From an uncultured Anaerolineales bacterium (GTDB lineage: Bacteria; Chloroflexota; Anaerolineae; Anaerolineales; UBA11858): a DNA stretch of 64,000 nt. This document shows, piece by piece, positions 1-60,200 of the stretch. The first letter of the stretch is position 1; every line of letters starts with the position of its first letter. Both the position numbers and the translations under genes were made by a program. Below the pieces are notes generated by a model, which was not told where the DNA came from, did not search any database, and was given only the letters and a program-made list of their open reading frames with translations. Where the stretch lies: contig CAZTWV010000012.1 of NCBI GenBank assembly GCA_964618295.1, positions 929 to 64,928 on the forward strand, read 5' to 3'.

Positions 1-396
1 GGAGCGGATGATTACTTGACCAAGCCATTTAATCCCAGGGAACTGATAGCCAGAATTCGGGCTGTCTTAAGGCGGGGGCATTCAGATTCTTCTGAAAAAA
101 ACAAAAGCATTCATCTAGCTGATCTGATGATTGATCCTGCTGCAAGGGAAGCAACAATTTCTGGCGAGGAGGTGTTTCTTCGAGCTAAGGAATTTGACTT
201 ATTGTATACACTTGCCCGGCACCGGGGTATTGTAATGAGCAGGGATCAATTGTTGAACCTGGTCTGGGATTATGATTATCCCGGAAATACCAGAACTGTG
301 GATGTTCATATTGGTCAGCTGCGGAAGAAACTAACCAGGAGTCAGGTCAAGATTGAGACTGTAACTGGTGTAGGGTATAAGTTAATTGCCAGCTGA
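1..396 (+). CDS. OmpR/PhoB-family response regulator, C-terminal part (5' end lies outside the window)
   Basis: Frame 1 is open from nt 1. It reads GADDYLTKPFNPRELIARIRAVLRR (end of a receiver domain). A winged-helix output domain follows (EFDLLYTLARHRGIVMSRDQLL...VDVHIGQLRKKL...GVGYKL). Confidence 0.9.
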   Translation, partial: GADDYLTKPFNPRELIARIRAVLRRGHSDSSEKNKSIHLADLMIDPAAREATISGEEVFLRAKEFDLLYTLARHRGIVMSRDQLLNLVWDYDYPGNTRTVDVHIGQLRKKLTRSQVKIETVTGVGYKLIAS

Positions 397-34290: not shown

Positions 34291-34319
34291 TTGACAATAA
34301 TCTCGAGTAAAGGTAAACT
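34291..34319 (+). promoter_or_regulatory. Candidate promoter for the CarH-like regulator (TTGACA-17 nt-TAAACT)
   Basis: TTGACA 34291-34296 and TAAACT 34314-34319. Its -35 and the divergent -35 form an 8-bp inverted repeat, TTGTCAAG (34257-34264) / CTTGACAA (34290-34297). Confidence 0.55.
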
Positions 34320-34419
34320 AATCCTTGAATTCCCCTTATATAGATGCGGAAAAAGGATTAAAAATTACTTAGAAAATCTGGAAAATAAATATTTCAAGAT
34401 TTTTGAAGGATACGACAAA

Positions 34420-35757
34420 ATGGCACACGACAGAGAATTAGCGACATTCAATCTGGGGGTTGTTCTGCAGGAAACCGGGATCAATCCCGACACACTCCGG
34501 GCCTGGGAGCGCAGGTATGGTCTTCCCTTGCCGGAGCGGTCGGATGGCGGACACCGGCTGTACTCTGAGCGGGATATTGACACAGTCAAGTGGCTCCTGG
34601 AGCGTCAAAAAGAGGGGATGCGAATTGGACAGGCTGTCACCCTGTGGAAAAAGATATCCAACCAGGGAGACGATCCGTTTCTGGAGTATCCCTTACATGG
34701 AGCGGAGATGGAAAATTTTCTTGAATTTGAAGACAGCAAAAATACTGGAACGGATGAAATGTTTTCGATGGTTCGTGAGGCATGGCTGGATGCTGCCCTG
34801 GCGTTTCAAGAAGAAAAAGCTGAACAGATACTAACGGAAGCCTTTGCTCGATACTCTCTGGAAGATGTTTGGGAAGAGGTTTTGGTTAAGGGGTTGGAGA
34901 AAATTGGGGACAGCTGGTATGGAGGGGATGTTACAGTCCAGCAGGAGCATTTTGCGACCTCACTGGTGATTCAACGTTTGCACAGTTTAATCGAAGCTGC
35001 TCCACCTCCGATTCGAAAAGAGGTAATCACGGTAGCCTGTCCTCCGGGGGAAGAGCACACTCTGGCTCCCCTCTTGATCACTTTATTTCTGAGAAGAAAA
35101 GGGTATCCAGTGATTTATCTGGGAGCCAATGTTCCCCTAGCCAATCTGGAAAAATCATTAGAAAAGACCGGGTCGAAGATCATCATCCTGACTGCCCAGA
35201 TTCTGGAAACCGGTATGTCCCTGGTGCAAACGGCCCAGCGCTTAACCCAATCTGGATACCGGGTAGGGTATGGAGGTCGGATATTTAATTTGTTTCCTGA
35301 GCTCAGAAACCGGGTTCCCGGGATATACCTGGGACAGCGCTTAAGTGGTGTGGGAAACACCATTCAGGATTTGATCCAAAAACAGAGCGCTGAAGATTTC
35401 GAGAATATTGATATGCCTGAAAAATATCAAATTCTCTTGGAAGAGTTTGAAAAAATCGAATATAAAGTTTGGGACCGTTTGCGGGAACGATCAGAAACTT
35501 TTGATTTGACCAGGAACGAAATAGATTTTATCAACGGGAAATTGAATCAAGCTATCAAAGCCAGCCTATATCTGGGAGATATTCAGTACCTGGCAGTAGA
35601 ATTGAATTGGTTGGGAAATCTTTTGAAAAGCCGGAAAATATCCAATGACCAGCTAAAAAAATACCTCACTGAGACAGCTGGCATTCACCGGGAGCTGCTG
35701 GATAATGGAGAAAATTTGATTATCAATACTCTTATGGAAGCTGGTTCTGAGATTTGA
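34420..35757 (+). CDS. MerR-family regulator with a cobalamin-binding domain (CarH/LitR-like light sensor) and an extra C-terminal helical domain
   Basis: MerR HTH (FNLGVVLQETGINPDTLRAWERRYGLP...GGHRLYSERDI). Wx9EH motif (WYGGDVTVQQEH, W codon 34915, EH 34945-34950). B12 lower-ligand motif GEEHTLAP (His codon 35056-35058) followed by a Rossmann-like KIIILTAQ...GYGGRIF. About 130 extra residues sit at the C-terminus. Confidence 0.8.
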   Translation: MAHDRELATFNLGVVLQETGINPDTLRAWERRYGLPLPERSDGGHRLYSERDIDTVKWLLERQKEGMRIGQAVTLWKKISNQGDDPFLEYPLHGAEMENFLEFEDSKNTGTDEMFSMVREAWLDAALAFQEEKAEQILTEAFARYSLEDVWEEVLVKGLEKIGDSWYGGDVTVQQEHFATSLVIQRLHSLIEAAPPPIRKEVITVACPPGEEHTLAPLLITLFLRRKGYPVIYLGANVPLANLEKSLEKTGSKIIILTAQILETGMSLVQTAQRLTQSGYRVGYGGRIFNLFPELRNRVPGIYLGQRLSGVGNTIQDLIQKQSAEDFENIDMPEKYQILLEEFEKIEYKVWDRLRERSETFDLTRNEIDFINGKLNQAIKASLYLGDIQYLAVELNWLGNLLKSRKISNDQLKKYLTETAGIHRELLDNGENLIINTLMEAGSEI

Positions 35758-35819
35758 TGGATATCTATTACTGAAGTCCCTGTCGAACGCTGAGATAGTA
35801 TCTACCCCTGGGAGGGATT

Positions 35820-36806
35820 ATGAGAGCTGAAAAAATTGCAGGCAGCGGCCGAAAAAAAATTGGTATCGTTGGAACCGGTTTTGTGGGGAGTACGGCGGCT
35901 TATGCGATGGTTTTACAGGGGGTCGGGCGGGAAATTGTCCTGGTTGATATTGACAAGCAGCGGGCAAAGGCTGAGGCTGCGGATATTCTCCATGCTGTTC
36001 CATTTGGAACTGCACACCTTGTCACAGCCGGTGATTACAAAGATTTAGTGGGAGCTCAGGTTGTGATTATTACCGCGGGCAGTGCTCAAAAACCCGGGGA
36101 ATCCCGCTTGGATCTTCTGGAAAGAAATGCTGCAATCATGAAAGACATTGTCCACCGGGTACTGGAGGTTGCACCCGAGACAATCCTGCTGATCACCACC
36201 AATCCGGTCGATGTGATCACCCATCTTGCCGCGGAATATGCAGCTGAGCTAGGGATGCCAAAAACCAGGGTGATGGGGTCTGGAACAACCCTGGATACGG
36301 CTCGTTTTCGAGCATTATTAGGGCAGTACCTGGAGGTCGATTTCCGGCACATTCATGGATATGTGCTGGGAGAACATGGCGACTCGGAAATGCTGACCTG
36401 GTCTCTGGTTTCGATAAGCGGCATACCGCTGGATCAATACTGTGAGCAGTGCCAGATCAAAGTGGATCAGGAAGTCAAAAACCGGATTGTACATGAAGTT
36501 CGGGATGCCGCCTATGAAATAATTGACGGCAAAGGGGCAACTTATTACGGAATTGGGGGGGCTCTGGCACGAATTGTGGAAACGATTCTGAGTGATCATC
36601 GCTCCATTTTGACTGTTTGCACACCGGTGGAAGAGATTTGTGGGGTTAAAGAGGTAACAATTGCCCTCCCCAACCACCTCGGGGCGGAGGGAATCATTAA
36701 GACTCTTATCCCCCCCTTATCTCCCAAGGAACAGGATCTGCTGGCGGCCAGTGCCAGCCTGATAAAGGACGAAATTGAAACCTACAAAGCAGCAGTGGGC
36801 GATTAA
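35820..36806 (+). CDS. ldh: L-lactate dehydrogenase
   Basis: IGIVGTGFVGSTAAY Rossmann motif. ITAGSAQKPGESRLDLL has Gln at the substrate-specificity position, which is LDH-type rather than MDH-type. Catalytic GEHGDS. Confidence 0.82.
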   Translation: MRAEKIAGSGRKKIGIVGTGFVGSTAAYAMVLQGVGREIVLVDIDKQRAKAEAADILHAVPFGTAHLVTAGDYKDLVGAQVVIITAGSAQKPGESRLDLLERNAAIMKDIVHRVLEVAPETILLITTNPVDVITHLAAEYAAELGMPKTRVMGSGTTLDTARFRALLGQYLEVDFRHIHGYVLGEHGDSEMLTWSLVSISGIPLDQYCEQCQIKVDQEVKNRIVHEVRDAAYEIIDGKGATYYGIGGALARIVETILSDHRSILTVCTPVEEICGVKEVTIALPNHLGAEGIIKTLIPPLSPKEQDLLAASASLIKDEIETYKAAVGD

Positions 36807-36929
36807 ACTGTTCTGAAAGGTGTGTCATTGATGATGAAAAACAATCTGATGTTAAGCTTTTTGAGATCTGTATTTTTATCTTCCTGCGTGTTCTGGACCG
36901 GAATCGCGATTTAATAAAGGGGGATTGAT

Positions 36930-38399
36930 TTGAAGCCTGTTGGAGTGATTGGAGCCGGGATTGGCGGATTAGCAGCCGCCGCTTCTCTCTCAACAGCTGG
37001 AATTCCTGTCCAGGTCTTTGAAGCCCATATGTATCCAGGAGGATGCGCCGGAACATTTTTTCACCGCGGCTACCGTTTTGATGCCGGGGCAACCCTTGCC
37101 GGTGGCTTTGGGAAGGGGGGACCGATGGAGCGGGTTCGGCAGTTGTTGGACCTGGATTTAACGGGGCGGGAATCGGCTTTACCTCTCCGGGTCCATTTGC
37201 CGGATGGAACAATCGTAAACCGCTGGAGCGAAGCAGACAGCTGGAGAAGAGAACGAATTGAAAAATTTGGACTGGAAACGGAAACATTCTGGAACTGGCA
37301 GGAAAAACGGGCCAGCCAGCTCTGGTCCCTGACGGATTTCGATCTTCCCTGGCCCCCGCAAAAACTGACTGATTATCTGGAGCTGCTGGAGATTGGAGGG
37401 AAGTGGCTCTGGAAAACTCCAGGTTCCCTGACTGTGGTTGGAGATGCATTCCGTCCCGTACGGCACCATAATCAAAATCAATCCGATGCTTTCCAGCAGT
37501 ATCTGGATGGACAGCTGCTGATCTCTTCCCAGGCACCCAGCTGCAGGGCCAATGCACTCTTCGGAGCGGCTGCCTTAGATCTGTATAACACAGGGGTATT
37601 ACATTTCCAGGGTGGGATGGGGGCAATTGCCCACAGCCTTGCAGATGCAGTTCGAAAAAGGGGAGGGGAAATTCATTACCGGCACCGGGTGCACCAGGTA
37701 GAAAAAACAAGCAGTGGGTTTCGTATAGGAATTTATGGGAAGGAAGACTTTTTTTACCGGGATGTGGTGTTTAATCTCAATCCCTGGGGGGTGAGGAAGC
37801 TGGCCGAGTTTCCACTTCCGCGGCGTTTTCGGACTATTCCCAACCAACCTGAAAAAGGTTGGGGAGCGTTTATAGTTTATGTTGGTTTCCCGGCTGACCT
37901 GGTACCTGAGGATTTTCCCCTTCATCACCAGATCCTGACAGATTTTCCACCGGGAGAAAGGTACTCAGTTTTTCTCTCCCTCAGCCCAGCCTGGGATGCA
38001 GGACGAGCCCCCGGAGGCCGGCGGGCATTGACAATCAGCACTCACACGAAATTAAAACAATGGTGGAATTCAGCAGGTGAAATCAATCTGGATCATGAGC
38101 AGCTGCGAAGGGAGTTTCTTGACTTTACGCTGGATGCTGCCGAACGGGTCATCCCGGGTCTGCGGGAAAATGCTGAACTAACACTTTCCGGCACCCCAGC
38201 TGCATTTCAGCGATTTACCGGCAGGCCGTTTGGATGGGTGGGGGGATTTCCGCAGGTGGACTTGTTCCAGAATTGGGGCGCGCGGATTCAAAAAGGAGCC
38301 TGGATGGTCGGTGACAGCATATTTCCCGGTCAATCCGTTCCAGCCGCAGCGCTGGGAGGAATTCGGGTTGCAAAGCAAATCCTGAAGGGTATAAAATGA
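36930..38399 (+). CDS. Phytoene-desaturase-family FAD-dependent oxidoreductase (CrtD/CrtI-like)
   Basis: VGVIGAGIGGLAAA dinucleotide fold, GGCAGTF..GYRFDAGATL, C-terminal GDSIFPGQSVPAAALGG. TTG start after AAAGGGGGA. Confidence 0.72.
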   Translation: MKPVGVIGAGIGGLAAAASLSTAGIPVQVFEAHMYPGGCAGTFFHRGYRFDAGATLAGGFGKGGPMERVRQLLDLDLTGRESALPLRVHLPDGTIVNRWSEADSWRRERIEKFGLETETFWNWQEKRASQLWSLTDFDLPWPPQKLTDYLELLEIGGKWLWKTPGSLTVVGDAFRPVRHHNQNQSDAFQQYLDGQLLISSQAPSCRANALFGAAALDLYNTGVLHFQGGMGAIAHSLADAVRKRGGEIHYRHRVHQVEKTSSGFRIGIYGKEDFFYRDVVFNLNPWGVRKLAEFPLPRRFRTIPNQPEKGWGAFIVYVGFPADLVPEDFPLHHQILTDFPPGERYSVFLSLSPAWDAGRAPGGRRALTISTHTKLKQWWNSAGEINLDHEQLRREFLDFTLDAAERVIPGLRENAELTLSGTPAAFQRFTGRPFGWVGGFPQVDLFQNWGARIQKGAWMVGDSIFPGQSVPAAALGGIRVAKQILKGIK

Positions 38400-38414
38400 T
38401 AGGAAGTGAATGAC

Positions 38415-39371
38415 ATGAAAAACAATAAATGGTTATGGATCGGCACGATTGTTTTATTAATCCTGGTAGTCGGCCCGTTTTTGATCCCGGTGGGAACAGT
38501 GGGAGAAATCGATGACCCGAAGAGCCTGGCGGATCCAGACAGCCAGTTTATCCCGGTCAGCGGGTTGGATCTGCATTATAAATTGGCTGGAGAAGGCTCC
38601 CCGGTTTTTGTGCTTTTGCATGGCTTTGGAGCCAGCACCTACAGCTGGCGTTCTGTGGTAGAAGATTTAGCACAGGCCGGTACTGTCATTACCTATGACC
38701 GTCCGGGATTTGGATTGACTGAAAGACCGCTGGTCTGGGAAGGCGAGAACCCTTACAGTCCGGACGCACAGGTTGATATTGTCCTGGAATTAATGGATGA
38801 ATTAGATCTTGAGGAAGCTATCCTGGTCGGTAACTCTGCCGGTGGGACTGTGGCCTTGAACACAGCACTGTCAGCTCCCTCGCAGGTTTCTGCTTTGATC
38901 CTGGTAGATGCTGCGGTGTACGCCGGAGGAGGCTCTCCAGCCTGGGTCCGTCCCTTGCTTTTCACCCCGCAGCTGGACCATCTGGGTCCGCTTCTGGCCC
39001 GGACGATCTCTAACCGGGGGGATCAATTTATTATGAATTCCTGGCATCAACCCCAACGAATTCCTGATCAGGTCTTTATCAATTACCGGAAGCCCCTCCA
39101 GATAAAGAATTGGGATCGGGCGCTCTGGGAGCTGACAAAATCGAGCTACCCTCTCAATCTTGACCAGCGCTTGACCGAGCTTTCCGTTCCGACCCTGGTG
39201 ATTACCGGGGATGACGACCGGATTGTGCCCACCGAGGACAGCATTCGCCTCGCTTCGGAAATTCCAGGTGCAGACCTTGCAGTGATTGAGAACTGCGGAC
39301 ATTTACCGCAAGAGGAGTGCCCGGCTGAGTTTCTGGAAGCTGTTTTTGGGTTTGTATCAGAAACCCCTTAA
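38415..39371 (+). CDS. Alpha/beta hydrolase
   Basis: HGFGAS oxyanion region, nucleophile elbow GNSAGG, C-terminal GDDDRIV...CGHLPQEE (Asp and His). N-terminal TM anchor. GTG 38406 is an alternative start. Confidence 0.8.
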   Translation: MKNNKWLWIGTIVLLILVVGPFLIPVGTVGEIDDPKSLADPDSQFIPVSGLDLHYKLAGEGSPVFVLLHGFGASTYSWRSVVEDLAQAGTVITYDRPGFGLTERPLVWEGENPYSPDAQVDIVLELMDELDLEEAILVGNSAGGTVALNTALSAPSQVSALILVDAAVYAGGGSPAWVRPLLFTPQLDHLGPLLARTISNRGDQFIMNSWHQPQRIPDQVFINYRKPLQIKNWDRALWELTKSSYPLNLDQRLTELSVPTLVITGDDDRIVPTEDSIRLASEIPGADLAVIENCGHLPQEECPAEFLEAVFGFVSETP

Positions 39372-39415
39372 AGCTTTTGGCTTGGAGTGGATTGAAAAAA
39401 GGGGAGAGGAGAGTA

Positions 39416-40858
39416 ATGGCTGAAATCCGACAATCAACAGCAATCTGGTGGATCCGGGGAGATCTGAGAATTAAAAATAACCCGGCTTTGAATCAAGCTT
39501 TAACAGCGGGATACAGTGTATTGCCATTATTTATTTTTGATCCAGTGATTGAAAATTCTTCCCGGATGGGATCGGTCCGGATGGGATTTCTTCAAGGGGG
39601 CTTGTTGAATCTCAAGGATAAAATTGAAAAGGCTGGAGGAAATTTGATTATTCGGCGGGGGCAGCCCAATTTAGTTCTCCAAGCAGTTCTGGAGGAAAGC
39701 GGTGCTGAAAAGATTTTCGCGGAAGGAGATCTGACACCCTACGCCCGGCGGCGAGACCGACAGGTTTCCAACCAGCTCCCCTTGGAACTGGTATCGAGGC
39801 CAACGTATTCGCCGCCGGATCAAATTACCGCCCAGAGCGGAAATCCATATCAAGTTTATTCCCATTACCGGAATAAATGGAAAGATCTGAATTTGAAAAA
39901 GCTCCGGGCCACCAGGCTGTCCAATCCTCCCCAGCATTTTTTTTCTGGAAATCTTACCGGATTGGAGCTTGAAGTGGATTTCGGAGATTATTCTGATTCT
40001 GGATTTGTTCCGGGTGAAGATGCCGCTCGTTCCGTTTTAGAAGATTTCACAGCAGGTGAAGATCCACCGGTCTATTCATACCGGGAGAAGCGAAATCGTC
40101 CGGACCTGAGCGGCACATCGCGGCTTTCCCCCTATCTTCACTTTGGAATGATCTCAATCACCGAAGCATTATTGGCTGCCCTGGAGGCGATGGATCGGTC
40201 TCAAAATCAAGCCCAGCTTCAGAGTGCTGAAACCTGGTTGGATGAATTAATTTGGCGGGAGTTTTTTCAATACATTCTTTATCATAATCCCCAGGTCCTG
40301 CGCCAGAGCTACCGGGAAAAGCTGGCAGCAATTCCCTGGAGGAATGATCGGGAAGAGTTTTTATGCTGGAAAGAGGGCAGAACCGGATTTCCGATTGTGG
40401 ATGCGGCAATGCGGCAGCTCTCCCGCGAAAATTGGATCCACAACCGGACCCGGATGGTCACGGCTTCCTTCCTGGTCAAGGATCTATTGATCGATTGGCG
40501 CTGGGGGGAGGACTGGTTTATGGAGAATCTGCTGGATGCTGATCTTGCGAGCAACAACGGCGGCTGGCAGTGGGTTGCCGGAACAGGCACGGATGCTGCG
40601 CCGTACTTCCGGATATTTAATCCAATCACCCAGGGAGAAAAGCACGATCCCCAGGGAAGATATATCCGCGAATATGTTCCGGAACTCCGTCAGGTTCCAG
40701 GCAGGTACATCCATCAGCCCTGGACAATGCCGGAAAGCGTTCAGCAGGAATCGAAGTGTGTGATCGGGAAAGATTACCCGCCCCCGATAGTAGAACACAG
40801 TCAAGCCCGGGAGCGAACTCTTGAGGCTTATCAGTTTGCGAAAAACAGCAGTTCATAG
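39416..40858 (+). CDS. phr: Deoxyribodipyrimidine photolyase / cryptochrome-family flavoprotein
   Basis: AIWWIRGDLRIKNNPAL N-terminal alpha/beta domain. FAD domain blocks SRLSPYLHFG, WREFF, DADLASNNGGWQWVAGTGTDAAPYFRIFNP. RBS GGAGAGGAGAG before ATG 39416. Confidence 0.9.
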   Translation: MAEIRQSTAIWWIRGDLRIKNNPALNQALTAGYSVLPLFIFDPVIENSSRMGSVRMGFLQGGLLNLKDKIEKAGGNLIIRRGQPNLVLQAVLEESGAEKIFAEGDLTPYARRRDRQVSNQLPLELVSRPTYSPPDQITAQSGNPYQVYSHYRNKWKDLNLKKLRATRLSNPPQHFFSGNLTGLELEVDFGDYSDSGFVPGEDAARSVLEDFTAGEDPPVYSYREKRNRPDLSGTSRLSPYLHFGMISITEALLAALEAMDRSQNQAQLQSAETWLDELIWREFFQYILYHNPQVLRQSYREKLAAIPWRNDREEFLCWKEGRTGFPIVDAAMRQLSRENWIHNRTRMVTASFLVKDLLIDWRWGEDWFMENLLDADLASNNGGWQWVAGTGTDAAPYFRIFNPITQGEKHDPQGRYIREYVPELRQVPGRYIHQPWTMPESVQQESKCVIGKDYPPPIVEHSQARERTLEAYQFAKNSSS

Positions 40859-45690: not shown

Positions 45691-45718
45691 TTGACGATGA
45701 TTTAAGCTCTGCTATAAT
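45691..45718 (+). promoter_or_regulatory. Sigma-70-type promoter of the TadE-like locus (TTGACG-16 nt-TATAAT)
   Basis: TTGACG 45691-45696 and TATAAT 45713-45718. A tandem CTAATCA CTAATCA (45723-45736) sits right after the -10, around the expected transcription start. Confidence 0.6.
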
Positions 45719-54032: not shown

Positions 54033-56405
54033 GTGATCAAACGATCTCTTTTAATCTCTTGGATGATCCTGCTCCTTCTGGGAGGGTTTCTCTGGTGGGG
54101 ATTTGCCCCGGTTCAAATCGGGGGACCGGTGGGGTATGTGATTGTCAATGGCAGCAGCATGGAGCCCGGGTTTTCAAAAGGGGATCTGGTGCTGACCCGG
54201 AGTGAGATCCAACCTCAACCTGGGACGGCTGTTGTCTATCAGCAGCCGCAGATAGGTATGATTTTCCATCGGGTGATTGATATTCAAAATGGATCCTATC
54301 TCCTTCAAGGTGACAATAATGACTGGGTGGATTCTTATCAGCCTGCTGAAGACGAGATCATCGGCGGCTATTGGCTCCGGATTCCATCTGGCGGTACAAT
54401 CATTACAAGGTTACGAGAGCCGCTAAACTTTTCATTGCTCAGCCTGGGGATTGTTGGCGTAATAATTTCACTTTTCTATTTTCAAAAACAAGATATGGCA
54501 AAAAAACGTAAGAACCGGGTTAAAAATCCAGCACATGCCTCAGAGAAGAAATCAGACACGAGAGCAGGAGAATTCCGTCAGGATCTGCTCCTTATGCTGG
54601 GTGTTCTGGCGCTGGCTGCTGTTATTTTGGGATTATTTGCGTTCCTACAGCCCCTGGAGCAGGAAGTTTCGGAAGAATTTCAATATCAGCATCAGAGTGA
54701 ATTGAATTACAGTGCTCAAGATTTGAGCGGAATTTATGATTCCTCACAGGTGATGACCGGGCAGCCGGTTTACCTGGATTTGACCTGCCGGGTTGATCTG
54801 AATATTGATTACCGCTTGACCGCCCCCGCTATGACCCCCGGCAATCAGGCTTTGTTTACAGGGTCTTACCGGATCAGTGCTCTGCTGGAGGATGTGGACG
54901 GCTGGCAGCGTACCATCCCTCTGGAAGATTTCAGAAGTTTTTCAGGGACATCTTTTTCTGAAGCGGCGGAGCTGGATGTGTGCGAAATCAGGGATTTGAT
55001 CCTCGAAAAAGAACAAAAAACCGGCACCAGCAACCGCTGGTACACGCTTTTTATCAGACCGGAGATCAATTACCAGGGACAGATCAGCGAGCTGCCGCTT
55101 GAAGGTGTGTTTCGACCGGAATTTCAATTTCAAATTGATACCTCATTGATGCGCCTGCCTGGCGAGGAAGAGCAGCTGACGATCATTGAAGAAGGAGCGC
55201 TGGAAAAAACCCGGATTTTGCCCAACACACTCTCAATATTTGGTTTGAGCCTGGAAGTAAAGACAGCACGCTGGACAGCTCTCTCAGTATTAATTATTTG
55301 TCTCGCAGGAGGGATCTGGCCCCTGGTGAGTCTTTACAGGGATTGGAAAAGTTCCGATGCTTCCTGGATCCAGGTTCAGTATCATCCTATGCTGGTTGAC
55401 GTCGCCTTTGGGAGTCCAGCCCGAAATGCGGAGCAAATTGTCCAGGTAGCTTCTTTTCAGGATTTATCCAAGATGGCGGAGCGCTATGGTGCGATGATAT
55501 TGCATGAATCCCGGGGACATCTCCACCGGTATTCAATTCAAGATGAAGGTACAGTCTATCAGTACAGTCTGGACGGCATCCGGGACCACAGCCTGTTTTC
55601 TGATTTGAACGATTTCAAAATAGCCTTAAACACCGCTCTGGAAGAGGATCAATTTGAACTGTACTATCAACCAATTGTAGATTTAAGAAGTAAACAGGTG
55701 ACCGGAATCGAAGCTTTTGTTCGCTGGAATCACCCCCGCTTGGGTCTGCTTTACCCTGCCGAGTTTATTCAGCTCGCAGAAGAAAACGGATTAATCCCGG
55801 TAATAGACCGCTGGGTGATCGAAAGCGGCTGCCGGCAGCTCAATGAATGGGGAGAATTTGGTCTGCCTCTGGTACCCTTATCTATCAATATTTCCCCAAA
55901 CACCATTTTGGATGATAACTTTTCGAATCATATCGAAAACGCTGTGGTTCAAAGCAGCTGTAATCCCGATTTTCTGCAGCTGGAAATCAACCGCTCGAAT
56001 CAGGTTTTCAGGGATAAAACGATCCAGCAGAGACTGCTCGATCTAAGAAGATTAGGGGTGCGGTTGGCTCTTGATAATTTTGCGACAGATGCGGCCAATC
56101 AAATTGACCAGGTTTCCAGGATGCCTATTCAGAGTTTAAAGATAGACCGGAGCATCATGCAGGGGATAACAGGAGATCAATCAAATTTACGTTTGATCAA
56201 CGCGGTTGTGAAAATGGCCCGCAGTTTGCAGATTGAGGTAATTGCTCAGGGTGTGGAGAATAATGAACAGATTGCCCTCCTGGAAAAACAGGAAATCTCC
56301 CTGGCCCAGGGTTATTTCCTGGGAGATCCAGTCCCGGCCCGGGAGATGGGCTGGAAACTGGGAAAAACCCTTCCCCAGGGTTCTGGTAAAGAGCTGGAAG
56401 AATAA
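54033..56405 (+). CDS. Fusion protein: archaeal/ER-type (SipW-like, S26B) signal peptidase + multi-pass membrane module + EAL domain
   Basis: Residues 1-125 carry a TM anchor plus GSSMEPGFSKGDLV (Ser42), IFHRV (His79) and QGDNNDWVDS (Asp94). TM helices lie at about 135-150, 185-205 and 415-435, with a KKRKNRVK loop between the first two. Residues 535-775 form the EAL domain (ELYYQPIVDL...GIEAFVRWNHP...SINISP...LKIDRS...QGYFLG). Confidence 0.8.
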   Translation: MIKRSLLISWMILLLLGGFLWWGFAPVQIGGPVGYVIVNGSSMEPGFSKGDLVLTRSEIQPQPGTAVVYQQPQIGMIFHRVIDIQNGSYLLQGDNNDWVDSYQPAEDEIIGGYWLRIPSGGTIITRLREPLNFSLLSLGIVGVIISLFYFQKQDMAKKRKNRVKNPAHASEKKSDTRAGEFRQDLLLMLGVLALAAVILGLFAFLQPLEQEVSEEFQYQHQSELNYSAQDLSGIYDSSQVMTGQPVYLDLTCRVDLNIDYRLTAPAMTPGNQALFTGSYRISALLEDVDGWQRTIPLEDFRSFSGTSFSEAAELDVCEIRDLILEKEQKTGTSNRWYTLFIRPEINYQGQISELPLEGVFRPEFQFQIDTSLMRLPGEEEQLTIIEEGALEKTRILPNTLSIFGLSLEVKTARWTALSVLIICLAGGIWPLVSLYRDWKSSDASWIQVQYHPMLVDVAFGSPARNAEQIVQVASFQDLSKMAERYGAMILHESRGHLHRYSIQDEGTVYQYSLDGIRDHSLFSDLNDFKIALNTALEEDQFELYYQPIVDLRSKQVTGIEAFVRWNHPRLGLLYPAEFIQLAEENGLIPVIDRWVIESGCRQLNEWGEFGLPLVPLSINISPNTILDDNFSNHIENAVVQSSCNPDFLQLEINRSNQVFRDKTIQQRLLDLRRLGVRLALDNFATDAANQIDQVSRMPIQSLKIDRSIMQGITGDQSNLRLINAVVKMARSLQIEVIAQGVENNEQIALLEKQEISLAQGYFLGDPVPAREMGWKLGKTLPQGSGKELEE

Positions 56406-56408
56406 GAT

Positions 56409-56858
56409 ATGGTCAGGAGAAATCTCAGAAACATTTTGCTGGTTCTGCTGCTCGGAATCGGAATGGTAGCGCTGATCAGTGTTTTTTCAGCTGTAGCGGC
56501 CACCAACACAGTGTCAGAATCCCGGGCAGATCTGAACTCCGCAGCGATTGATGGAAACGATCTCAAACCGGATGCCTGCAGTGGAATCAATATTCAAAAT
56601 ATTGTAGACGTTGGAGCCGGTGAAACCGGGACTGATGCTAACGACCTGATCCTGGGAACTGCCGGGAATGACTTGGTCATCCGGGGCGGAGCCGGGGATG
56701 ACTGCATCCTGGGTGGAGGGGGAAATGAAGGCTTCATCATTTTCCTTGGAATCTTCGGGGAAGAAGGGGATGATGTCTTAATTGGCGGTCCCGGATTTGA
56801 TGTCTGCCAGGGCGGTGGAGGATCAAACACATTTGTGGAATGTGAGGTTACCAGATAA
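56409..56858 (+). CDS. Small secreted protein with RTX-like Gly/Asp repeats and a SipW-type-like signal peptide
   Basis: ALISVFSAVAATNTVSESRADLN resembles the signal region of the two small proteins. LILGTAGNDLVIRGGAGDDCILGGGGNE and GEEGDDVLIGGPGFD are haemolysin-type Ca-binding-like nonapeptides. Starts 3 nt after the upstream stop. Confidence 0.62.
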   Translation: MVRRNLRNILLVLLLGIGMVALISVFSAVAATNTVSESRADLNSAAIDGNDLKPDACSGINIQNIVDVGAGETGTDANDLILGTAGNDLVIRGGAGDDCILGGGGNEGFIIFLGIFGEEGDDVLIGGPGFDVCQGGGGSNTFVECEVTR

Positions 56859-57229: not shown

Positions 57230-60200
57230 ATGAAAGTACAATTTTCTAGAATTCAACCTGGAAAAAAAATGCCCAAAATCCTGCCAAACCATCGTTTGGT
57301 ATTTGCTTTAGTAAGTTTCTTTTTAGCGCTAATTTTGGTCCCGGTTGTGATTGTTTTTGCTGCGACGGTACCGGCGGAGATGAACATTCAATTCACACCG
57401 ATTGCAATTGCATCGGGGGGGACCTCGACATTGAAAGTTTCAGTCTTCAACTTGAATGCTAATCCGCTTACTAATGCGACCTGGACGGACACTTTTCACC
57501 CTGATATAGCAATAGCAGATCCTCCCAACATCAACGTCCAGAACTGCGGCAGCTATTCTTTGACTGATGGTGCTGGAGGTTTAATCGAAGCGGGGGACAG
57601 TTCCATCAAGCTGACCGGTGCTACCGTGCCGGCCCAACTACCCAGCGGGGTTCCCGGGGAATGTTACGTAGAGGTGGATGTCACTTCAACGACGCCCGGC
57701 AATTTGATCAACTCTATACCTGAGAATCATCTAGTATCAGAAACCATTGATCCTGATGGTGGTGGATCCGTGCCGATTACCAATACCACCCCGGCCAGTG
57801 CCACGCTGAATGTGATCGGGGTTGAATCACCCTCGCTGAGCAAGGCCTTCGCGCCCAACACCGTTTTTGTCGGTCAGACCAGCACGCTGACAATTAACAT
57901 TTTTAACAATGATCAGGATTACCCCTTGACCGAAGTGACCATGTTTGATGAGCTGCCGACTGCTGGAAATGAAGATATTAAAGTGGCCAGCCCGCTGAGT
58001 GCCTCATTGAACGGCTGCGGCGAAGGATCCGGCGCAGAGTTGACTGATGAGAATGGGGATCCGCTGGCTCCCGATGACACCACCATTAAGTTGGTCAATG
58101 GCACCATCGCTCCGGATTCGAACTGCACGATCACGGTCGATGTGGTCTCAATGGTGCAGGGTGCTTATGTAAATGTAATACCCAAGGATGCCCCGCTGGA
58201 TGGTTCAATCCAAACCCGGCAGGGTGTTAGCAATGAGGATCCGGCTGATGATCAGCTCAACGTCCAGGCTTTTATCATTGACAAAGAATTTGCCGAGACG
58301 AAGATAGCTGCCGGTGAGCCCACCTTGGTGAGCATTGAGATCGTCAATAACGCCACCATTGATTATACCGGCGCTGCTTTGAACGATATCCTGCCTGAAG
58401 GGCTTGTTTTCGAACCGGGGAGCGCATCACTCAGCTGCACCGATGGATCTTCTACGGCAGCTTTCGCGTATTCAGATGATACAAATCCCAATGATACCCT
58501 GGAAATGACAGGCGGAGTCCTGCCCGCAGGGACAACCTGCACAATTACGGCCACGGCCGAAGCTTTAACTTCGGTCACGGTTGGTACCTACACCAATAAT
58601 ATCCCCATCGGAGCTCTAAGTACTGTTGAAGGGGCGACAAACCATAATTTGGCTTCAGCGGATATTGAGGTGGATACTCTAGGGATTACAAAAGATTTTG
58701 CTGAAGTTACCATTCCATCGGGCGGCACCAGCGAATTGACCATCACAATTTCTAACCCGTTTTCGAAGGACTATACGGATGCTGATGGTGGGGATCCGCT
58801 CCTGGAAGATGTTTTGCCTGCCGAGTTTGAATTCGATACCAGTGTAATACCTGGTTTACAGGGAACTGGTTGTACAGGAGACCTTTCGATTGGTGGAACT
58901 AATAATAATACTCTTTTCTTGGATGGCGGTACCTTGCCGGCGAATACAGTCTGTACAATCACGGCCACTGTCAAGGCGGAATCAACAGGCAATCCGGCTG
59001 ATCCAGGCGATTACGTAAATGAAATCGCCGCAGGAAAAATAAACACAGAAGAGGGGGCGACAAACGCCTCTAAGGCCAGCGATACCATTTCCGTTCAATC
59101 ACTTGGACTGACAAAAGACTTTGATCCCAATACAATTCCCGTCGGGGGAACCAGCACACTGACCATTGAGATCATTAACAATGGGACGGATACATTCACA
59201 GGGGCAGATCTTTCGGATGAGATAACCGATACCTCATTTTACTTTGAAGCTGGAACAGCCCAAACGACCTGTATCCCAAATGGTGTCGTAGATATTTCTG
59301 CGGACTCCCAGACTATTTCTTTGACCAATGGCACGATTCCTCCGGGCGGCTGCACCATCATTGTGGACGTGACCACGGATGATAATCAACTGCCCACCAG
59401 TTACGAAAACATTATTGAAGCGGGTGATCTCATCACAGATCAAGGTGATACAAATCCGGCGGATGCCAGTGACATCATCAGCGTGGAAACGGTCACGATC
59501 ACGAAAAGTTATGGAACCGGCACGATTTCCTATCCGGAAGTCAGCACTCTGACGATCACGATTTCGAATCCAGCCAACGGCCAGGCCTTGACTAATATGA
59601 GCCTGACCGACACCTTGCCGGATGACCTGGTCATTGCAACTCCTGCAAACGCAAGCACAACCTGTAATGATTCAACACCGCCTACACCTACCTTGACAGC
59701 CGAAGAAGGGACTAGGGTAATCGAGTTATCCGATGGTTCTTTAGCGGCAGGCAGTGGGTCCTGCTCGATTCAGGTGGATGTTACCGCTTTATCGGAAACC
59801 GTTTCGGGTGATTACCCTAATACGATTGGCCAGGGGGATTTAACCTCAGGTCCTGCCGGTAATGGCCCGACAAATGGCAATACGAATACTGCCACCCTGG
59901 AAGTTGAAGCCCTTGAAGTCAGCAAAGATTTTCTGTATGAGAGCTTTCAGGCGGGGGACACCAGCAGCACCAATCCGCTGACGATCACCCTGACCAATCC
60001 CACCTCTTTGGATTATACAAACGTAAATATAACAGACAGCTTGCCAACTTCACCGGATACAGATCTGGAATTTGTTTTGGGGACGGAAAATACGGACTGC
60101 GGTGGGACTGTTTCTCTAACTGGTTCTTCACCACCCCCATATCGAACGATTGGATTGGCGGGAGGGACTCTCCCTGCAAATGGCAGCTGCACTATCACCG

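Follow-up and report, generated by a model that had tools for sequence, protein, structure and literature searches.

In the Tafi system (Tat-fimbriae) of haloarchaea and in the AbpX loci of archaea and bacteria, an archaeal-type signal peptidase I (SPase I) is dedicated to small fibre subunits encoded beside it, and the peptidase gene adjoins a gene for a DUF5305 protein; in Tafi the pair is TafD and TafG (PMC11821415; bioRxiv 10.64898/2026.01.04.697558). Deletion of TafD blocks the processing of TafA, and in archaeal Tafi a dedicated SPase with DUF5305 is required for the processing of fibre subunits or is associated with it (PMC11821415; PMC12337348). [quoted passage not shown] A eukaryotic analogue may be seen in SEC11 and SPCS3, where an S26B-type Ser/His/Asp subunit is accompanied, on the same side of the membrane, by a membrane-anchored beta-sandwich accessory. 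Fusion of SPase I with DUF5305 into one protein has also been noted already (PMC11821415; bioRxiv 10.64898/2026.01.04.697558).

Two further systems provide useful comparisons. In the tapA-sipW-tasA arrangement of Bacillus subtilis, the gene for an S26B-type peptidase is flanked by the genes for two substrates. SipW has about 190 residues, without DUF5305 or EAL, and PMC4292775, citing Terra et al. 2012, describes it as having two functions, the second being a regulatory one in biofilm formation. No link of SipW to c-di-GMP by fusion was found. In the LapD/LapG system of Pseudomonas, a degenerate EAL domain binds c-di-GMP inside the cell and controls a surface-protein protease across the membrane (PMC3032553; PMC3032545). 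LapD possesses HAMP, degenerate GGDEF and LapD_MoxY_N domains and sequesters a separate cysteine protease, LapG.

The gene described here was found in a 64-kb window (the whole stretch of DNA that was analysed) and encodes an SPase I, a DUF5305 module and an EAL domain. It differs from the TafD/TafG and AbpX pairs in that both proteins form one chain with an extra EAL domain, in that the host is bacterial (Anaerolineae), and in that the small subunits encoded beside it have no detectable similarity to TafA/TafE, AbpX or TasA. The SPase I-DUF5305 fusions of other Chloroflexota (Anaerolinea thermophila E8MZY1, Tepidiforma WP_158065712) match its product in topology and throughout the N-terminal 520 residues; a c-di-GMP domain is unmentioned in the published accounts of such fusions, whereas the present protein belongs to an EAL-bearing subset. 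No description of an EAL domain added to SPase-DUF5305 was found in the literature, and it is only this third domain that is undescribed. A preliminary description of the gene had held that signal peptidases are normally stand-alone enzymes and that fusion to a second-messenger domain is highly unusual. The first part is overstated, since the SPase-DUF5305 fusion is published and common (937 clusters at E<=1e-30 in Chloroflexota).

The other likenesses are looser. The gene is flanked, as sipW is, by two candidate substrate genes, with the Bacillus order mirrored, but orthology with SipW was rejected (26.8 against a cut-off of 190 for the NF046067 equivalog), leaving a protein that is SipW-like in type only. 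The resemblance to LapD lies in the proposed working and not in family, since a Ser/His signal peptidase is here in the same chain as the EAL domain; membership of the LapD family was rejected because HAMP, GGDEF and LapD_MoxY_N are absent and the NCBIfam LapD model, which matches the EAL region only, scores 76.6 where the cut-off is 1020. The eukaryotic complex, in contrast to the fusion, is multi-subunit, resides in the ER and is without a nucleotide-sensing domain.

Architecture, topology and distribution of the fusion

The features of the locus are collected in Table 1. Pfam profiles match the fusion protein at aa 28-111 (Peptidase_S24, 35.6 bits against GA 23.3), aa 302-511 (DUF5305, PF17231, 33.2 bits against GA 29; also found in most relatives) and aa 531-766 (EAL, 218 bits, E=1.5e-64). 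The NCBIfam profile TIGR02228, 'sigpep_I_arch', scores 56.5 bits, above its cut-off of 51.85, and phmmer reaches human SEC11A/C at E ~5e-4. The peptidase motifs SSMEP, FHRV and GDNN begin at aa 41, 78 and 93, respectively. His79, Asp94 and Asp100 are invariant in all 75 aligned relatives and Ser42 is kept in 74, the remaining one having an alignment gap. The protein has a Ser/His catalytic pair, with no Lys general base, and conserved Asp residues, predicted to lie on the trans side of the membrane. Judged by sequence, it is an S26B archaeal/ER-type SPase I and a candidate for cleavage after AxA-type sites.

Table 1. Features of the fusion gene and its surroundings (positions in the window)
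Feature	Position	Strand	Basis
Fusion gene SPase I - DUF5305 - EAL	54033..56405	+	GTG start, 790 aa, uninterrupted ORF
TM1 (aa 2-24), N-in signal-anchor	54036..54104	+	Hydropathy peak aa 6-24, K3/R4 before; AF2 helix aa 2-24
Predicted extracytoplasmic S26B (archaeal/ER-type) signal peptidase I domain (aa 30-128)	54120..54416	+	TIGR02228, Peptidase_S24, conserved Ser42/His79/Asp94/Asp100, SEC11A/C matches
TM2 - basic cytoplasmic loop (KKRKNRVK) - TM3 hairpin (aa 129-205)	54417..54647	+	Hydropathy; AF2 helices 130-163, 176-205
Predicted extracytoplasmic beta-sandwich of DUF5305 module (aa 206-410)	54648..55262	+	AF2 all-beta, pLDDT ~90; Pfam match from aa 302; literature
TM4 (aa 411-440)	55263..55352	+	Hydropathy peak aa 416-434; AF2 helix aa 409-440
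Predicted cytoplasmic alpha/beta domain of DUF5305 (aa 441-520), KMAERYGAMILHE	55353..55592	+	Pfam DUF5305 to aa 511; AF2; conservation
Predicted cytoplasmic EAL domain (aa 525-775), degenerate at catalytic positions	55605..56357	+	Pfam, residue alignments, Foldseek
Subunit A gene (127 aa)	53555..53938	+	Sec-type signal peptide, Ig-like fold, neighbour in 74/80 loci (BLAST)
Subunit B gene (149 aa)	56409..56858	+	Signal peptide, RTX-type repeats, downstream homologue in 71/80 loci
Subunit A paralogue (139 aa), motif GFASANTL, between two TadE-like giants	50490..50909	+	36% identity, E=1.6e-14
Terminator-like hairpin, 10-bp GC-rich stem + U-run	53974..54011	+	Between subunit A and peptidase genes

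Hydropathy gives four TM segments (aa 6-24, 131-149, 185-203 and 416-434). The loop at aa 150-184 contains 11 K/R residues, whilst K/R is absent from the initial 15 residues of each of the two long outer segments. The AF2 model of the full protein (pLDDT 79.8, pTM 0.40) is laid out as TM1 (2-24), the peptidase beta-domain (33-117), TM2 (130-163), TM3 (176-205), with low pLDDT in the loop between these two helices, then the beta-sandwich (209-408), TM4 (409-440), the alpha/beta domain (442-514) and the EAL domain (525-775). Because the inter-domain geometry is unreliable at this pTM, a relay path is not readable from the model. The peptidase active site and the ~200-aa beta-sandwich are predicted to be outside, and the alpha/beta part of DUF5305 and the EAL domain to be cytoplasmic. 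The middle module fits the published layout of DUF5305, fused to the SPase (AF2 model compared with bioRxiv 10.64898/2026.01.04.697558). Foldseek with the full-length model returned EAL structures only, and nothing matching the DUF5305 part. The alpha/beta domain of DUF5305 and the peptidase domain are the two most conserved parts of the family (0.66 each, compared with 0.58 for EAL).

Much of this had been anticipated in the preliminary description. Its S26B-type Ser/His peptidase behind a single N-terminal anchor agrees with TIGR02228, Peptidase_S24, the motifs and TM1, and both terminal domains stand above their HMM cut-offs. The helix hairpin with a basic cytoplasmic loop corresponds to TM 131-149/185-203 and the K/R-rich stretch between them, and the ~200-aa outside loop, further helix and cytoplasmic tail ending in EAL are seen by hydropathy and AF2 alike. 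The distribution of positive charges, the AF2 model and the literature on DUF5305 all agree with its inside/outside assignment. The identity that it offered for the middle module, DUF5305, is upheld by the Pfam match; a location of this family beside sipW in Bacillus is undocumented in the papers cited here.

It had also been recognised that a sequencing error, a frameshift or an assembly fault might have merged two or three genes, and such errors do occur in the family, as the gene is split at three loci in long-read MAGs (L017, L018 and L024). Against this, gene calling on an independent Logan assembly, that of SRR7048221, yields an identical product of 790 aa. A search for the same three domains found them in 35 protein clusters, down to 31% identity, and full-length relatives are encoded in ~45 species-representative genomes, nearly all of them Anaerolineae and including Ornatilinea apprima and Levilinea saccharolytica. 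Two cultured isolates are amongst these ~45 genomes, where the architecture is continuous and aligns end to end. An artefact was rejected on this evidence, and its likelihood is negligible.

The fused EAL domains form a group apart from 22 outgroup EAL domains (one member, L040, is placed at the root), and the clades within it agree with those seen in the N-terminal tree, which indicates from the sequences that the fusion is old and stable. In an NJ tree of the N-terminal 485 residues, EAL-bearing and EAL-less proteins are interleaved; its deep branches are long, and for this reason it was not used for counting gains or losses. Cassettes without EAL are far commoner than those with it, so the system appears able to work without c-di-GMP input.

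A sister group carries an HD-GYP domain at the position of the EAL domain. Of 43 long family representatives, 30 have EAL and 6 have HD-GYP, and no PilZ or GGDEF domain was seen amongst them. In most of the HD-GYP versions the HD and HHExxDGxGYP motifs are canonical, and the domain looks catalytically intact. By sequence, the HD-GYP version is an independent fusion that links the family to c-di-GMP, and this parallel recruitment suggests that the common factor is the nucleotide and not a shared protein partner.

Conservation and loss in the EAL domain

Aligned to active phosphodiesterases, the fusion EAL domain reads LEINRS, DNFATD and QGVE. In RocR numbering, R654 stands at the position of the loop-6 anchor E268, N682 at that of the second-metal ligand D296 and Q739 at that of the general base E352; in loop 6 the canonical DDFGTGYSS is replaced by DNFATDAAN. 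Intactness was judged by the residues of Seshasayee et al. 2010 (RocR E175, N233, E265, E268, D295, K316 and E352; PMC2952852), with D296 and a DDFG(T/A)GYSS loop 6 added, and the effect of single substitutions was judged from the residue list in that paper and general knowledge. The fusion EAL departs from the published set as well as at D296 and in loop 6. The c-di-GMP and first-metal residues are kept (Q546, E560, R564, N619, E651, D681, K703, E742 and Q759), and the residue table shows the M1 metal site to be intact. The fold superimposes on c-di-GMP-bound 3n3t with a TM-score of 0.90 and an rmsd of 1.9 A (Foldseek).

The same division is seen across the family. Of the binding/M1 positions Q161, E175, R179, N233, K316, E355 and Q372, six are invariant in 44 species and Q372 is kept in 43/44; in 25 wider metagenome representatives, four of the seven never change and R179, N233 and K316 rarely do. 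By contrast, only 7 of these 25 have an intact set of seven metal/catalytic positions. The equivalents of E268, D296 and E352 vary across the 44 species, and E352 is replaced, depending on the clade, by Q, V, M, K, A or N, which argues for repeated independent loss. Kept binding residues beside drifting catalytic ones are, in sequence terms, the signature of selection for binding, and the EAL domain probably binds c-di-GMP without hydrolysing it, as a receptor rather than an enzyme. Degenerate EAL receptors such as FimX and LapD have the same fold and have likewise lost catalytic residues; their EAL chains are matched by sequence (E 1e-17 to 1e-13), and that of FimX also by fold (3hv9). They differ from the fusion EAL, which retains a complete first metal site and the EAL glutamate and has a different output module. 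Since these features are kept, the fusion EAL is closer to active enzymes than are the FimX and LapD domains; it is 34% identical to PA0575 and TBD1265.

Could the domain instead be an enzyme? In an outside-in 'trigger' arrangement, a phosphodiesterase active here or in relatives would be set by precursor load or fibre assembly outside, and subunit export would in turn act on c-di-GMP, either the cellular pool or a local one. It is in favour of this that both recruited domain types are phosphodiesterase folds, with no PilZ, that most HD-GYP versions have canonical motifs, and that the M1 site of the fusion protein is intact. Some EAL versions also appear intact: L026, L030 and L032 in the 44-species table keep all metal and catalytic residues, and 7 of the 25 metagenome-wide representatives keep all seven metal/catalytic positions, only 2 of them with D296 as well. 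These EAL versions and the intact HD-GYP versions suggest that the ancestral role of the C-terminal domain may have been hydrolysis rather than sensing. However, with E352 as Q, D296 as N, E268 as R and a non-canonical loop 6, an active phosphodiesterase was considered unlikely for the fusion protein itself, and the same or equivalent losses have arisen several times and are found in most members, which would be unexpected if hydrolysis were selected. The 'trigger' arrangement is an unlikely explanation overall.

It is improbable that the EAL domain serves merely as a nucleotide-independent scaffold for dimerisation, localisation or partner binding, in the manner of YdiV, BluF or CsrD. Degenerate EAL domains with such roles are known (PMC3509220 for BluF; PMC3032553 for CsrD), and the catalytic residues of the fusion EAL are lost. 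Against such a role, the residues in contact with c-di-GMP and metal 1 are (near-)invariant in the 44 species and in the 25 wider representatives, in contrast to the drifting catalytic ones, and the parallel HD-GYP fusion again favours the nucleotide over a protein partner. The degeneracy at catalytic positions, missed in the preliminary description, is what makes its idea of inside-out signalling credible.

Neighbouring genes and candidate substrates

The product of the upstream gene, subunit A, has a conserved N-terminal extension (FA-A(A/S)NTVPxxxAGEGxxxISGY) of 18 residues, followed by a 6-strand Ig-like beta-sandwich with 2 conserved Cys; in the AF2 monomer (pLDDT 78.9) the extension, aa 32-46, is disordered. 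Only 3 nt separate the stop codon of the fusion gene from the start of the subunit B gene, which encodes AVA-ATNTVSESRAD, RTX-type GGxGxD repeats (HemolysinCabind, E=1.7e-8) and conserved Cys. A relationship of subunit A to TasA, Tafi or AbpX proteins was rejected, as nothing significant was obtained by Pfam, NCBIfam, PDB profile or Foldseek; the best matches were E 0.22 for the profile against PDB and E 0.13 for Foldseek, to generic Ig V domains. The generic Ig-like fold and the conserved N-terminal extension suggest that subunit A may be a fibre subunit.

The order A - peptidase - B is kept in nearly all of 80 Chloroflexota loci, with unrelated outer flanks. In both A and B the signal peptide terminates with AxA and (A)NTVP comes next, and in 63 A and 56 B proteins the N of this cleavage-site motif is present in 100%, the preceding A in 98-100% and TVP in 73-94%. 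From these sequence features, A and B are likely to be substrates of the fusion peptidase, with A proposed as the main and B as the second one. Signal peptidase I is generally broad in specificity, and a general housekeeping peptidase could have unrelated neighbours, or the peptidase-like domain could be only a sensor for EAL output. Such readings are very improbable. The gene order persists while its surroundings change, the motif shared by A and B stretches past the AxA rule, and dedicated enzymes of the SipW/TafD type provide precedent; the catalytic Ser/His/Asp are invariant, which mere sensing would not need.

The spacer between the subunit A and peptidase genes contains a hairpin and folds at -28.7 kcal/mol (z = -2.5, RNA fold), and a comparable hairpin with a T-run is found in 15/61 related loci. 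This hairpin may be an attenuator that sets the subunit-to-enzyme ratio. Counts from a promoter/terminator scan were not clearly above those of shuffles, with only two hairpins being convincing. No c-di-GMP riboswitch or any other Rfam RNA, and no GGDEF-type motif, was found in the 64-kb window.

A possible link between c-di-GMP and signal-peptide removal

The reading preferred here, held tentatively and at a little less than an even chance, is of a dedicated signal peptidase that responds to c-di-GMP, in which SPase I, a TafG-like DUF5305 and a c-di-GMP-sensing EAL domain form one chain. The peptidase would cut the signal peptides off A and B. The extension of subunit A could then act as a donor strand for polymerisation, whilst subunit B, a putative small Ca2+-binding RTX-repeat protein, might be a cap, anchor or nucleator. 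The EAL domain would bind c-di-GMP without hydrolysis, its occupancy would be relayed via the alpha/beta domain and TM4 to the outside pair of beta-sandwich and peptidase, and the cleavage or hand-off of subunits would track the cellular c-di-GMP level. Like LapD, the fusion would signal from the inside out, except that its protease would belong to the sensor's own chain; this direction is tentatively proposed. The stricter claim that c-di-GMP directly gates signal-peptide cleavage, through binding by a dead EAL domain or hydrolysis by HD-GYP, and so controls the assembly of a two-component surface structure post-translationally, is somewhat unlikely.

Matrix and adhesin production is known to be controlled by c-di-GMP at the level of transcription, by riboswitches, by the activation of glycosyltransferases and by regulation of a release protease in the manner of LapD. 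No description of signal-peptide removal as a regulated step was found in the literature, and to our knowledge it is not known as one. The lineage-wide fusion and the independent HD-GYP version provide strong genomic evidence for functional coupling of the SPase and the c-di-GMP domain, and suggest that protein export processing is wired directly to c-di-GMP. If direct gating were true, this would be the first signal peptidase regulated by a second messenger and a new output class for c-di-GMP.

With the fusion, the passage of a signal across the membrane, from a domain that binds a nucleotide to a protease outside, could be studied within a single polypeptide. The cytoplasmic part of DUF5305 (TafG), which is poorly understood, is a likely signal-relay element. 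Anaerolineae are filamentous, biofilm-forming and abundant in sludge and sediments, and the presence of the cassette in two cultured isolates makes the idea testable. The uncharacterised secreted pair A and B may form a new type of Anaerolineae surface fibre; if the proposal is correct, an unrecognised surface structure of these bacteria would consist of a small Ig-like subunit together with an RTX cap that binds Ca2+.

The fusion protein and its orientation

Models for both terminal domains match the 790-aa fusion protein: at the N-terminal end TIGR02228, the NCBIfam model for 'signal peptidase I, archaeal type' (56.5 bits against a curated cut-off of 51.85), and Pfam Peptidase_S24 (aa 28-111, 35.6 bits), and at the C-terminal end Pfam EAL (aa 531-766, 218 bits, E=1.5e-64). 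The membrane module between them, tentatively named DUF5305 in the preliminary description, is indeed matched by that Pfam family (aa 302-511, 33.2 bits against a gathering score of 29). The Ser/His/Asp peptidase motifs claimed there are likewise all present, with SSMEP at aa 41, FHRV at aa 78 and GDNN at aa 93. Among 75 aligned full-length relatives, some with EAL and some lacking it, none departs from His79, Asp94 or Asp100, and Ser42 is constant too, bar one alignment gap; with its catalytic residues kept, the peptidase domain looks active. A Ser/His/Asp set is typical of the S26B enzymes (SipW, archaeal SPase I and Sec11) and a Ser/Lys pair of the LepB-type enzymes, and on its residues the fusion peptidase is assigned to the former and not the latter. 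A phmmer search of PDB sequences also reached human SEC11A/C (E about 5e-4), the catalytic subunits of the ER signal peptidase complex. Because its score against the Bacillus SipW equivalog model (26.8) lies far under the cut-off of 190, the peptidase is classed as SipW-like in type, not as a SipW orthologue.

The possibility that two genes were merged, or that the fusion is an assembly artefact, is ruled out. An identical 790-aa product is encoded on an independently assembled contig (Logan assembly, run SRR7048221), and the same three Pfam domains are common to 35 clusters of 740-840 aa, down to 31% identity, among 5.8 billion proteins searched. With one genome scanned for each GTDB species, end-to-end relatives turned up in about 45 genomes, labelled nearly all as Anaerolineales, Anaerolineaceae or Chloroflexota. 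Two carriers are cultured, Ornatilinea apprima P3M-1 (locus L030) and Levilinea saccharolytica KIBI-1 (L043), and Pfam finds the three domains in both. In three loci on long-read MAG contigs (L017, L018 and L024) the gene is broken into pieces of 250-350 aa, which are probably frameshift errors of the assemblies and not real gene decay.

A 19-residue Kyte-Doolittle scan gives four membrane segments, at aa 6-24, 131-149, 185-203 and 416-434. Lys/Arg residues number 11 in the 35-residue loop that joins segments two and three and zero in the opening 15 residues of each long segment (30-130 and 204-415); K3 and R4 lie at the extreme N-terminus. From this distribution the positive-inside rule places the N-terminus inside, the peptidase outside, the basic loop inside, the 200-aa domain outside and the last 355 residues inside. 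An AlphaFold2 model built with 27 family members (mean pLDDT 79.8) has a layout that matches the hydropathy, although the relative placement of the domains is not to be read from it, because its pTM is 0.40. The Lys/Arg counts and the modelled layout thus bear out the arrangement proposed earlier, with the peptidase and the 200-aa loop outside and the EAL domain inside.

Features of the window and of the fusion protein (nucleotide positions, or residues where marked aa)
Feature	Position	Strand	Remark
Light-response-looking gene group	34291-40858	+	upstream of cluster
Promoter-like site	45691-45718		TTGACG-16-TATAAT with TG; region's best; ahead of TadE-like gene
TadE-like protein, 241 aa	45751-46476	+	opens cluster
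TadG-like VWA protein, 527 aa	46489-48072	+
TadE-headed giant, 715 aa	48152-50299	+	TadE pseudopilin N-terminus; Pro/Thr-rich linkers
Paralogue of A	50490-50909
TadE-headed giant, 750 aa	51031-53283	+	TadE pseudopilin N-terminus; Pro/Thr-rich linkers
Strong GC-rich hairpin and T-run	53313-53339	+	directly 3' of second TadE-headed giant
13-bp inverted repeat	53444-53473
Promoter-like site	53476-53503
A	53555-53938	+	upstream neighbour of fusion gene
GC-rich hairpin and U-run	53974-54011		between A and peptidase gene
Fusion gene	54033-56405	+	single ORF, 790 codons, GTG start
TM1	aa 2-24		AlphaFold2
Peptidase domain, all-beta	aa 33-117		AlphaFold2
Helical hairpin	aa 130-163 and 176-205		AlphaFold2
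Beta-sandwich	aa 209-408		AlphaFold2; confident, pLDDT about 90
TM4	aa 409-440		AlphaFold2
Small alpha/beta domain	aa 442-514		AlphaFold2
EAL barrel	aa 525-775		AlphaFold2
B	56409-56858	+	start 3 nt past fusion-gene stop codon
Giant surface protein, >2,250 aa	57230-64000	+	past window end; 11 DUF7933, 3 DUF11, 2 SdrD B-like

The EAL domain and its HD-GYP counterpart

Compared residue by residue with the active phosphodiesterases PA0575, BifA, TBD1265 and MorA, the EAL domain departs from the canonical motifs at several places: EAL is EAF, LEITES is LEINRS, DDFGTGY is LDNFATD and EGVE is QGVE. In RocR numbering, E352 is the general base and also a ligand of the second metal. Within the residue set for EAL catalysis of Seshasayee et al. 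2010 (PMC2952852), the equivalents of E175, N233, E265, D295 and K316 are retained, and E268 and E352 are replaced by Arg654 and Gln739; D296, a further position, is Asn682. The window's EAL domain is therefore likely to be catalytically inactive, as far as its residues can predict.

The same positions vary across the family. In 44 species, E268 is Glu in 24, Arg in 15 and another residue in five; D296 is Asn in 31 and Asp in seven; and E352 is Glu in 17 and otherwise Gln, Val, Met, Lys, Ala or Asn. The E352 replacements are fixed clade by clade and differ between clades, which implies that the general base has been lost several times. Canonical loop 6 (DDFG(T/A)GYSS) occurs in no family member compared. 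Among 25 wider representatives (50% identity), only seven keep all seven metal/catalytic positions, and only two keep D296 as well. The equivalents of Q161, E175, R179, N233, K316 and E355, on the other hand, are invariant in the 44 species and that of Q372 in 43 of them, and Q161, E175, E355 and Q372 are invariant in the 25 wider representatives. Frozen binding residues beside drifting catalytic ones are the pattern expected if selection has acted to bind c-di-GMP and not to cut it. The modelled domain superimposes on c-di-GMP-bound TBD1265 (3n3t) with a TM-score of 0.90 and an rmsd of 1.9 Å, and the window's EAL domain is predicted to be probably competent for binding. That it serves instead as a scaffold, independent of the nucleotide, is quite improbable given that the binding residues are invariant.

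EAL is not the only c-di-GMP domain found at this place. A groundwater Chloroflexota MAG (L067:9974-12103, + strand) encodes an SPase-DUF5305 protein followed by HD-GYP, with no EAL (Pfam HD_5, 117 bits; motif HHEKWDGSGYP). With this protein as query, seven further clusters of the same architecture were found, down to 40% identity. In the resulting set of eight (P0126-P0132 and P0146), the HD motif is present in all and HHExxDGxGYP is canonical in five, the other three being partly degenerate; genes for A and B still lie on either side. Of 43 long (>630 aa) representatives from the best 150 family matches, 30 carry EAL, six HD-GYP and none GGDEF or PilZ. Two others carry an FGE-sulfatase (formylglycine-generating enzyme-like) domain and one a transposase fragment (DUF4096), possibly a gene-call merge. 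In the peptidase-DUF5305 proteins of five EAL-less loci from Villigracilis-like Anaerolineales (L055, L058, L060, L065 and L073) the C-terminal ~100 aa are acidic and of low complexity, with no Pfam match, and end in a conserved EYVIQTGEIGF ... LRKIKL. The presence of two unrelated c-di-GMP domains at the same spot makes, from architecture, a strong 'Rosetta stone' case for functional coupling.

Since both recruited domains are phosphodiesterase folds, it can also be argued that the coupling runs the other way, with events on the peptidase side regulating a phosphodiesterase. This leading alternative would suit the HD-GYP versions and those few EAL versions, among them the Ornatilinea protein, whose sites are intact. 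It may reflect how the system worked ancestrally, but it accords poorly with the window's protein and is judged unlikely overall. In a neighbour-joining tree the fused EAL domains separate from 22 outgroup EAL domains, which cluster together; one fused member, L040, lies at the root. Clades of the fused EAL domains mirror those of the N-terminal tree, a pattern that fits one old fusion followed by vertical inheritance.

The flanking genes and the wider locus

In nearly all of 80 related loci, a small gene of about 125 codons lies directly before the peptidase gene and one of about 150 codons directly after it, irrespective of EAL. By BLAST the upstream gene is of the A type in 74 and the downstream gene of the B type in 71, and outside the cassette the surroundings are unrelated housekeeping DNA. 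Both products have classical Sec signal peptides, whose n-region is basic and whose h-region spans about 20 residues. In alignments the signal-peptide end reads Y-A-F-A-A-A-N-T-V-P-x-T-x-A-G-D-G-x-G-x-I in A and A-x-A-A-A-N-T-V-P-x-T-R in B; the Asn is 100% conserved in both and the Ala before it 98-100%. Under the small-residue rule, candidate cut sites follow FA, two residues ahead of the invariant Asn, or AA(A/S), immediately ahead of it. The synteny and the motif common to A and B make a housekeeping peptidase with chance neighbours very improbable.

B contains RTX-type GGxGxD Ca2+-binding repeats and several conserved Cys. A has two conserved Cys and no Pfam, NCBIfam or PDB-sequence relative. 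In an AF2 model of A (29-sequence alignment, pLDDT 78.9), the signal helix leads into an extension (aa 32-46) that is unstructured although its sequence is highly conserved, and this into an Ig-like sandwich of six strands; the sole Foldseek matches were to generic Ig V domains (best E=0.13). Subunits of donor-strand fibres are typified by an incomplete sandwich that bears a conserved N-terminal extension, and we hypothesize from the model that A may be such a subunit. Membership of the TasA/Tafi/AbpX superfamily was considered for A and is unsupported, as sequence and fold searches gave no member. The gene order, substrate-peptidase-substrate on this proposal, is that of tapA-sipW-tasA. The hairpin and U-run after A, comparable to those in 15 of 61 related loci, could attenuate read-through and so yield subunit in excess of enzyme.

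Only in the window's own clade does the cassette lie inside a larger surface-protein cluster, and TadE-headed giants stand beside it only there (L001-L008, L014, L017 and L018); these genes are outside the conserved core of the cassette. The two giants are paralogues, 69% identical across their N-terminal 270 aa; PA14 matches one of them weakly, and each is followed by a small A-type gene. The hairpin behind the second giant, the inverted repeat and the promoter-like site beyond it make the cassette look like a transcription unit of its own. The signal peptide of the giant at 57230 ends VFAATVPAE, loosely like the AxA-ANTVP motif, and similar giants lie after or before the cassette at L005 (2,872 aa) and L012 (2,215 aa). 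The light-response-looking group comprises a MerR regulator with B12-binding domains (CarH/LitR-like), a flavin amine-oxidase/desaturase-like protein, an alpha/beta hydrolase and a DNA photolyase.

A proposed link between a signal peptidase and c-di-GMP

The Tat-fimbriae cluster of Haloarcula hispanica encodes a dedicated signal peptidase, TafD, whose deletion abolishes processing of the major subunit TafA, and a DUF5305 protein, TafG; some bacterial signal peptidases carry DUF5305 too, and joint action has been proposed (PMC11821415; PMC12337348). A preprint on AbpX treats DUF5305 as a putative SPase I accessory subunit, likens SPase I/DUF5305 to the eukaryotic signal peptidase complex, cites an SPase-DUF5305 fusion from Anaerolinea thermophila (E8MZY1) and reports genes for c-di-GMP enzymes as frequent neighbours of bacterial abpX loci (bioRxiv 10.64898/2026.01.04.697558). 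None of the parts is new in kind: dedicated peptidases of the SipW/TafD type, DUF5305 accessory modules and degenerate EAL receptors are all known, and fusions of the first two have been reported. At E<=1e-30 a sensitive search of 1.84 billion representatives with aa 1-525 returned 937 clusters, which makes the two-domain fusion common, and the initial view of signal peptidases as normally stand-alone enzymes goes too far. For the three-domain form, the literature searched on DUF5305, signal peptidases, Chloroflexi and SipW/c-di-GMP yielded no description of EAL or HD-GYP on a signal peptidase, nor of how the combination is conserved in Anaerolineae, of its HD-GYP counterpart or of the A/B cassette.

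The established elements are an outward-facing intact S26B site, a DUF5305 module through the membrane, an inward EAL fold and two secreted neighbours with a common cleavage-site motif; to judge from its residues, the binding pocket of the EAL fold is preserved and its catalytic apparatus broken. On this basis the fusion protein would be a dedicated signal peptidase for A and B. Occupancy of the EAL domain by c-di-GMP would be relayed through the conserved alpha/beta domain and TM4 to the beta-sandwich/peptidase pair outside, and the maturation of A and B would track the c-di-GMP level. This complete chain, each functional step of which we infer, has somewhat less than an even chance of being correct. 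The signalling would run inside-out in the manner of LapD (PMC3032553), with the difference that here the protease is part of the receptor. A messenger-linked signal peptidase would come as a surprise to c-di-GMP specialists, and the two cultured isolates, which carry the cassette, make it testable.
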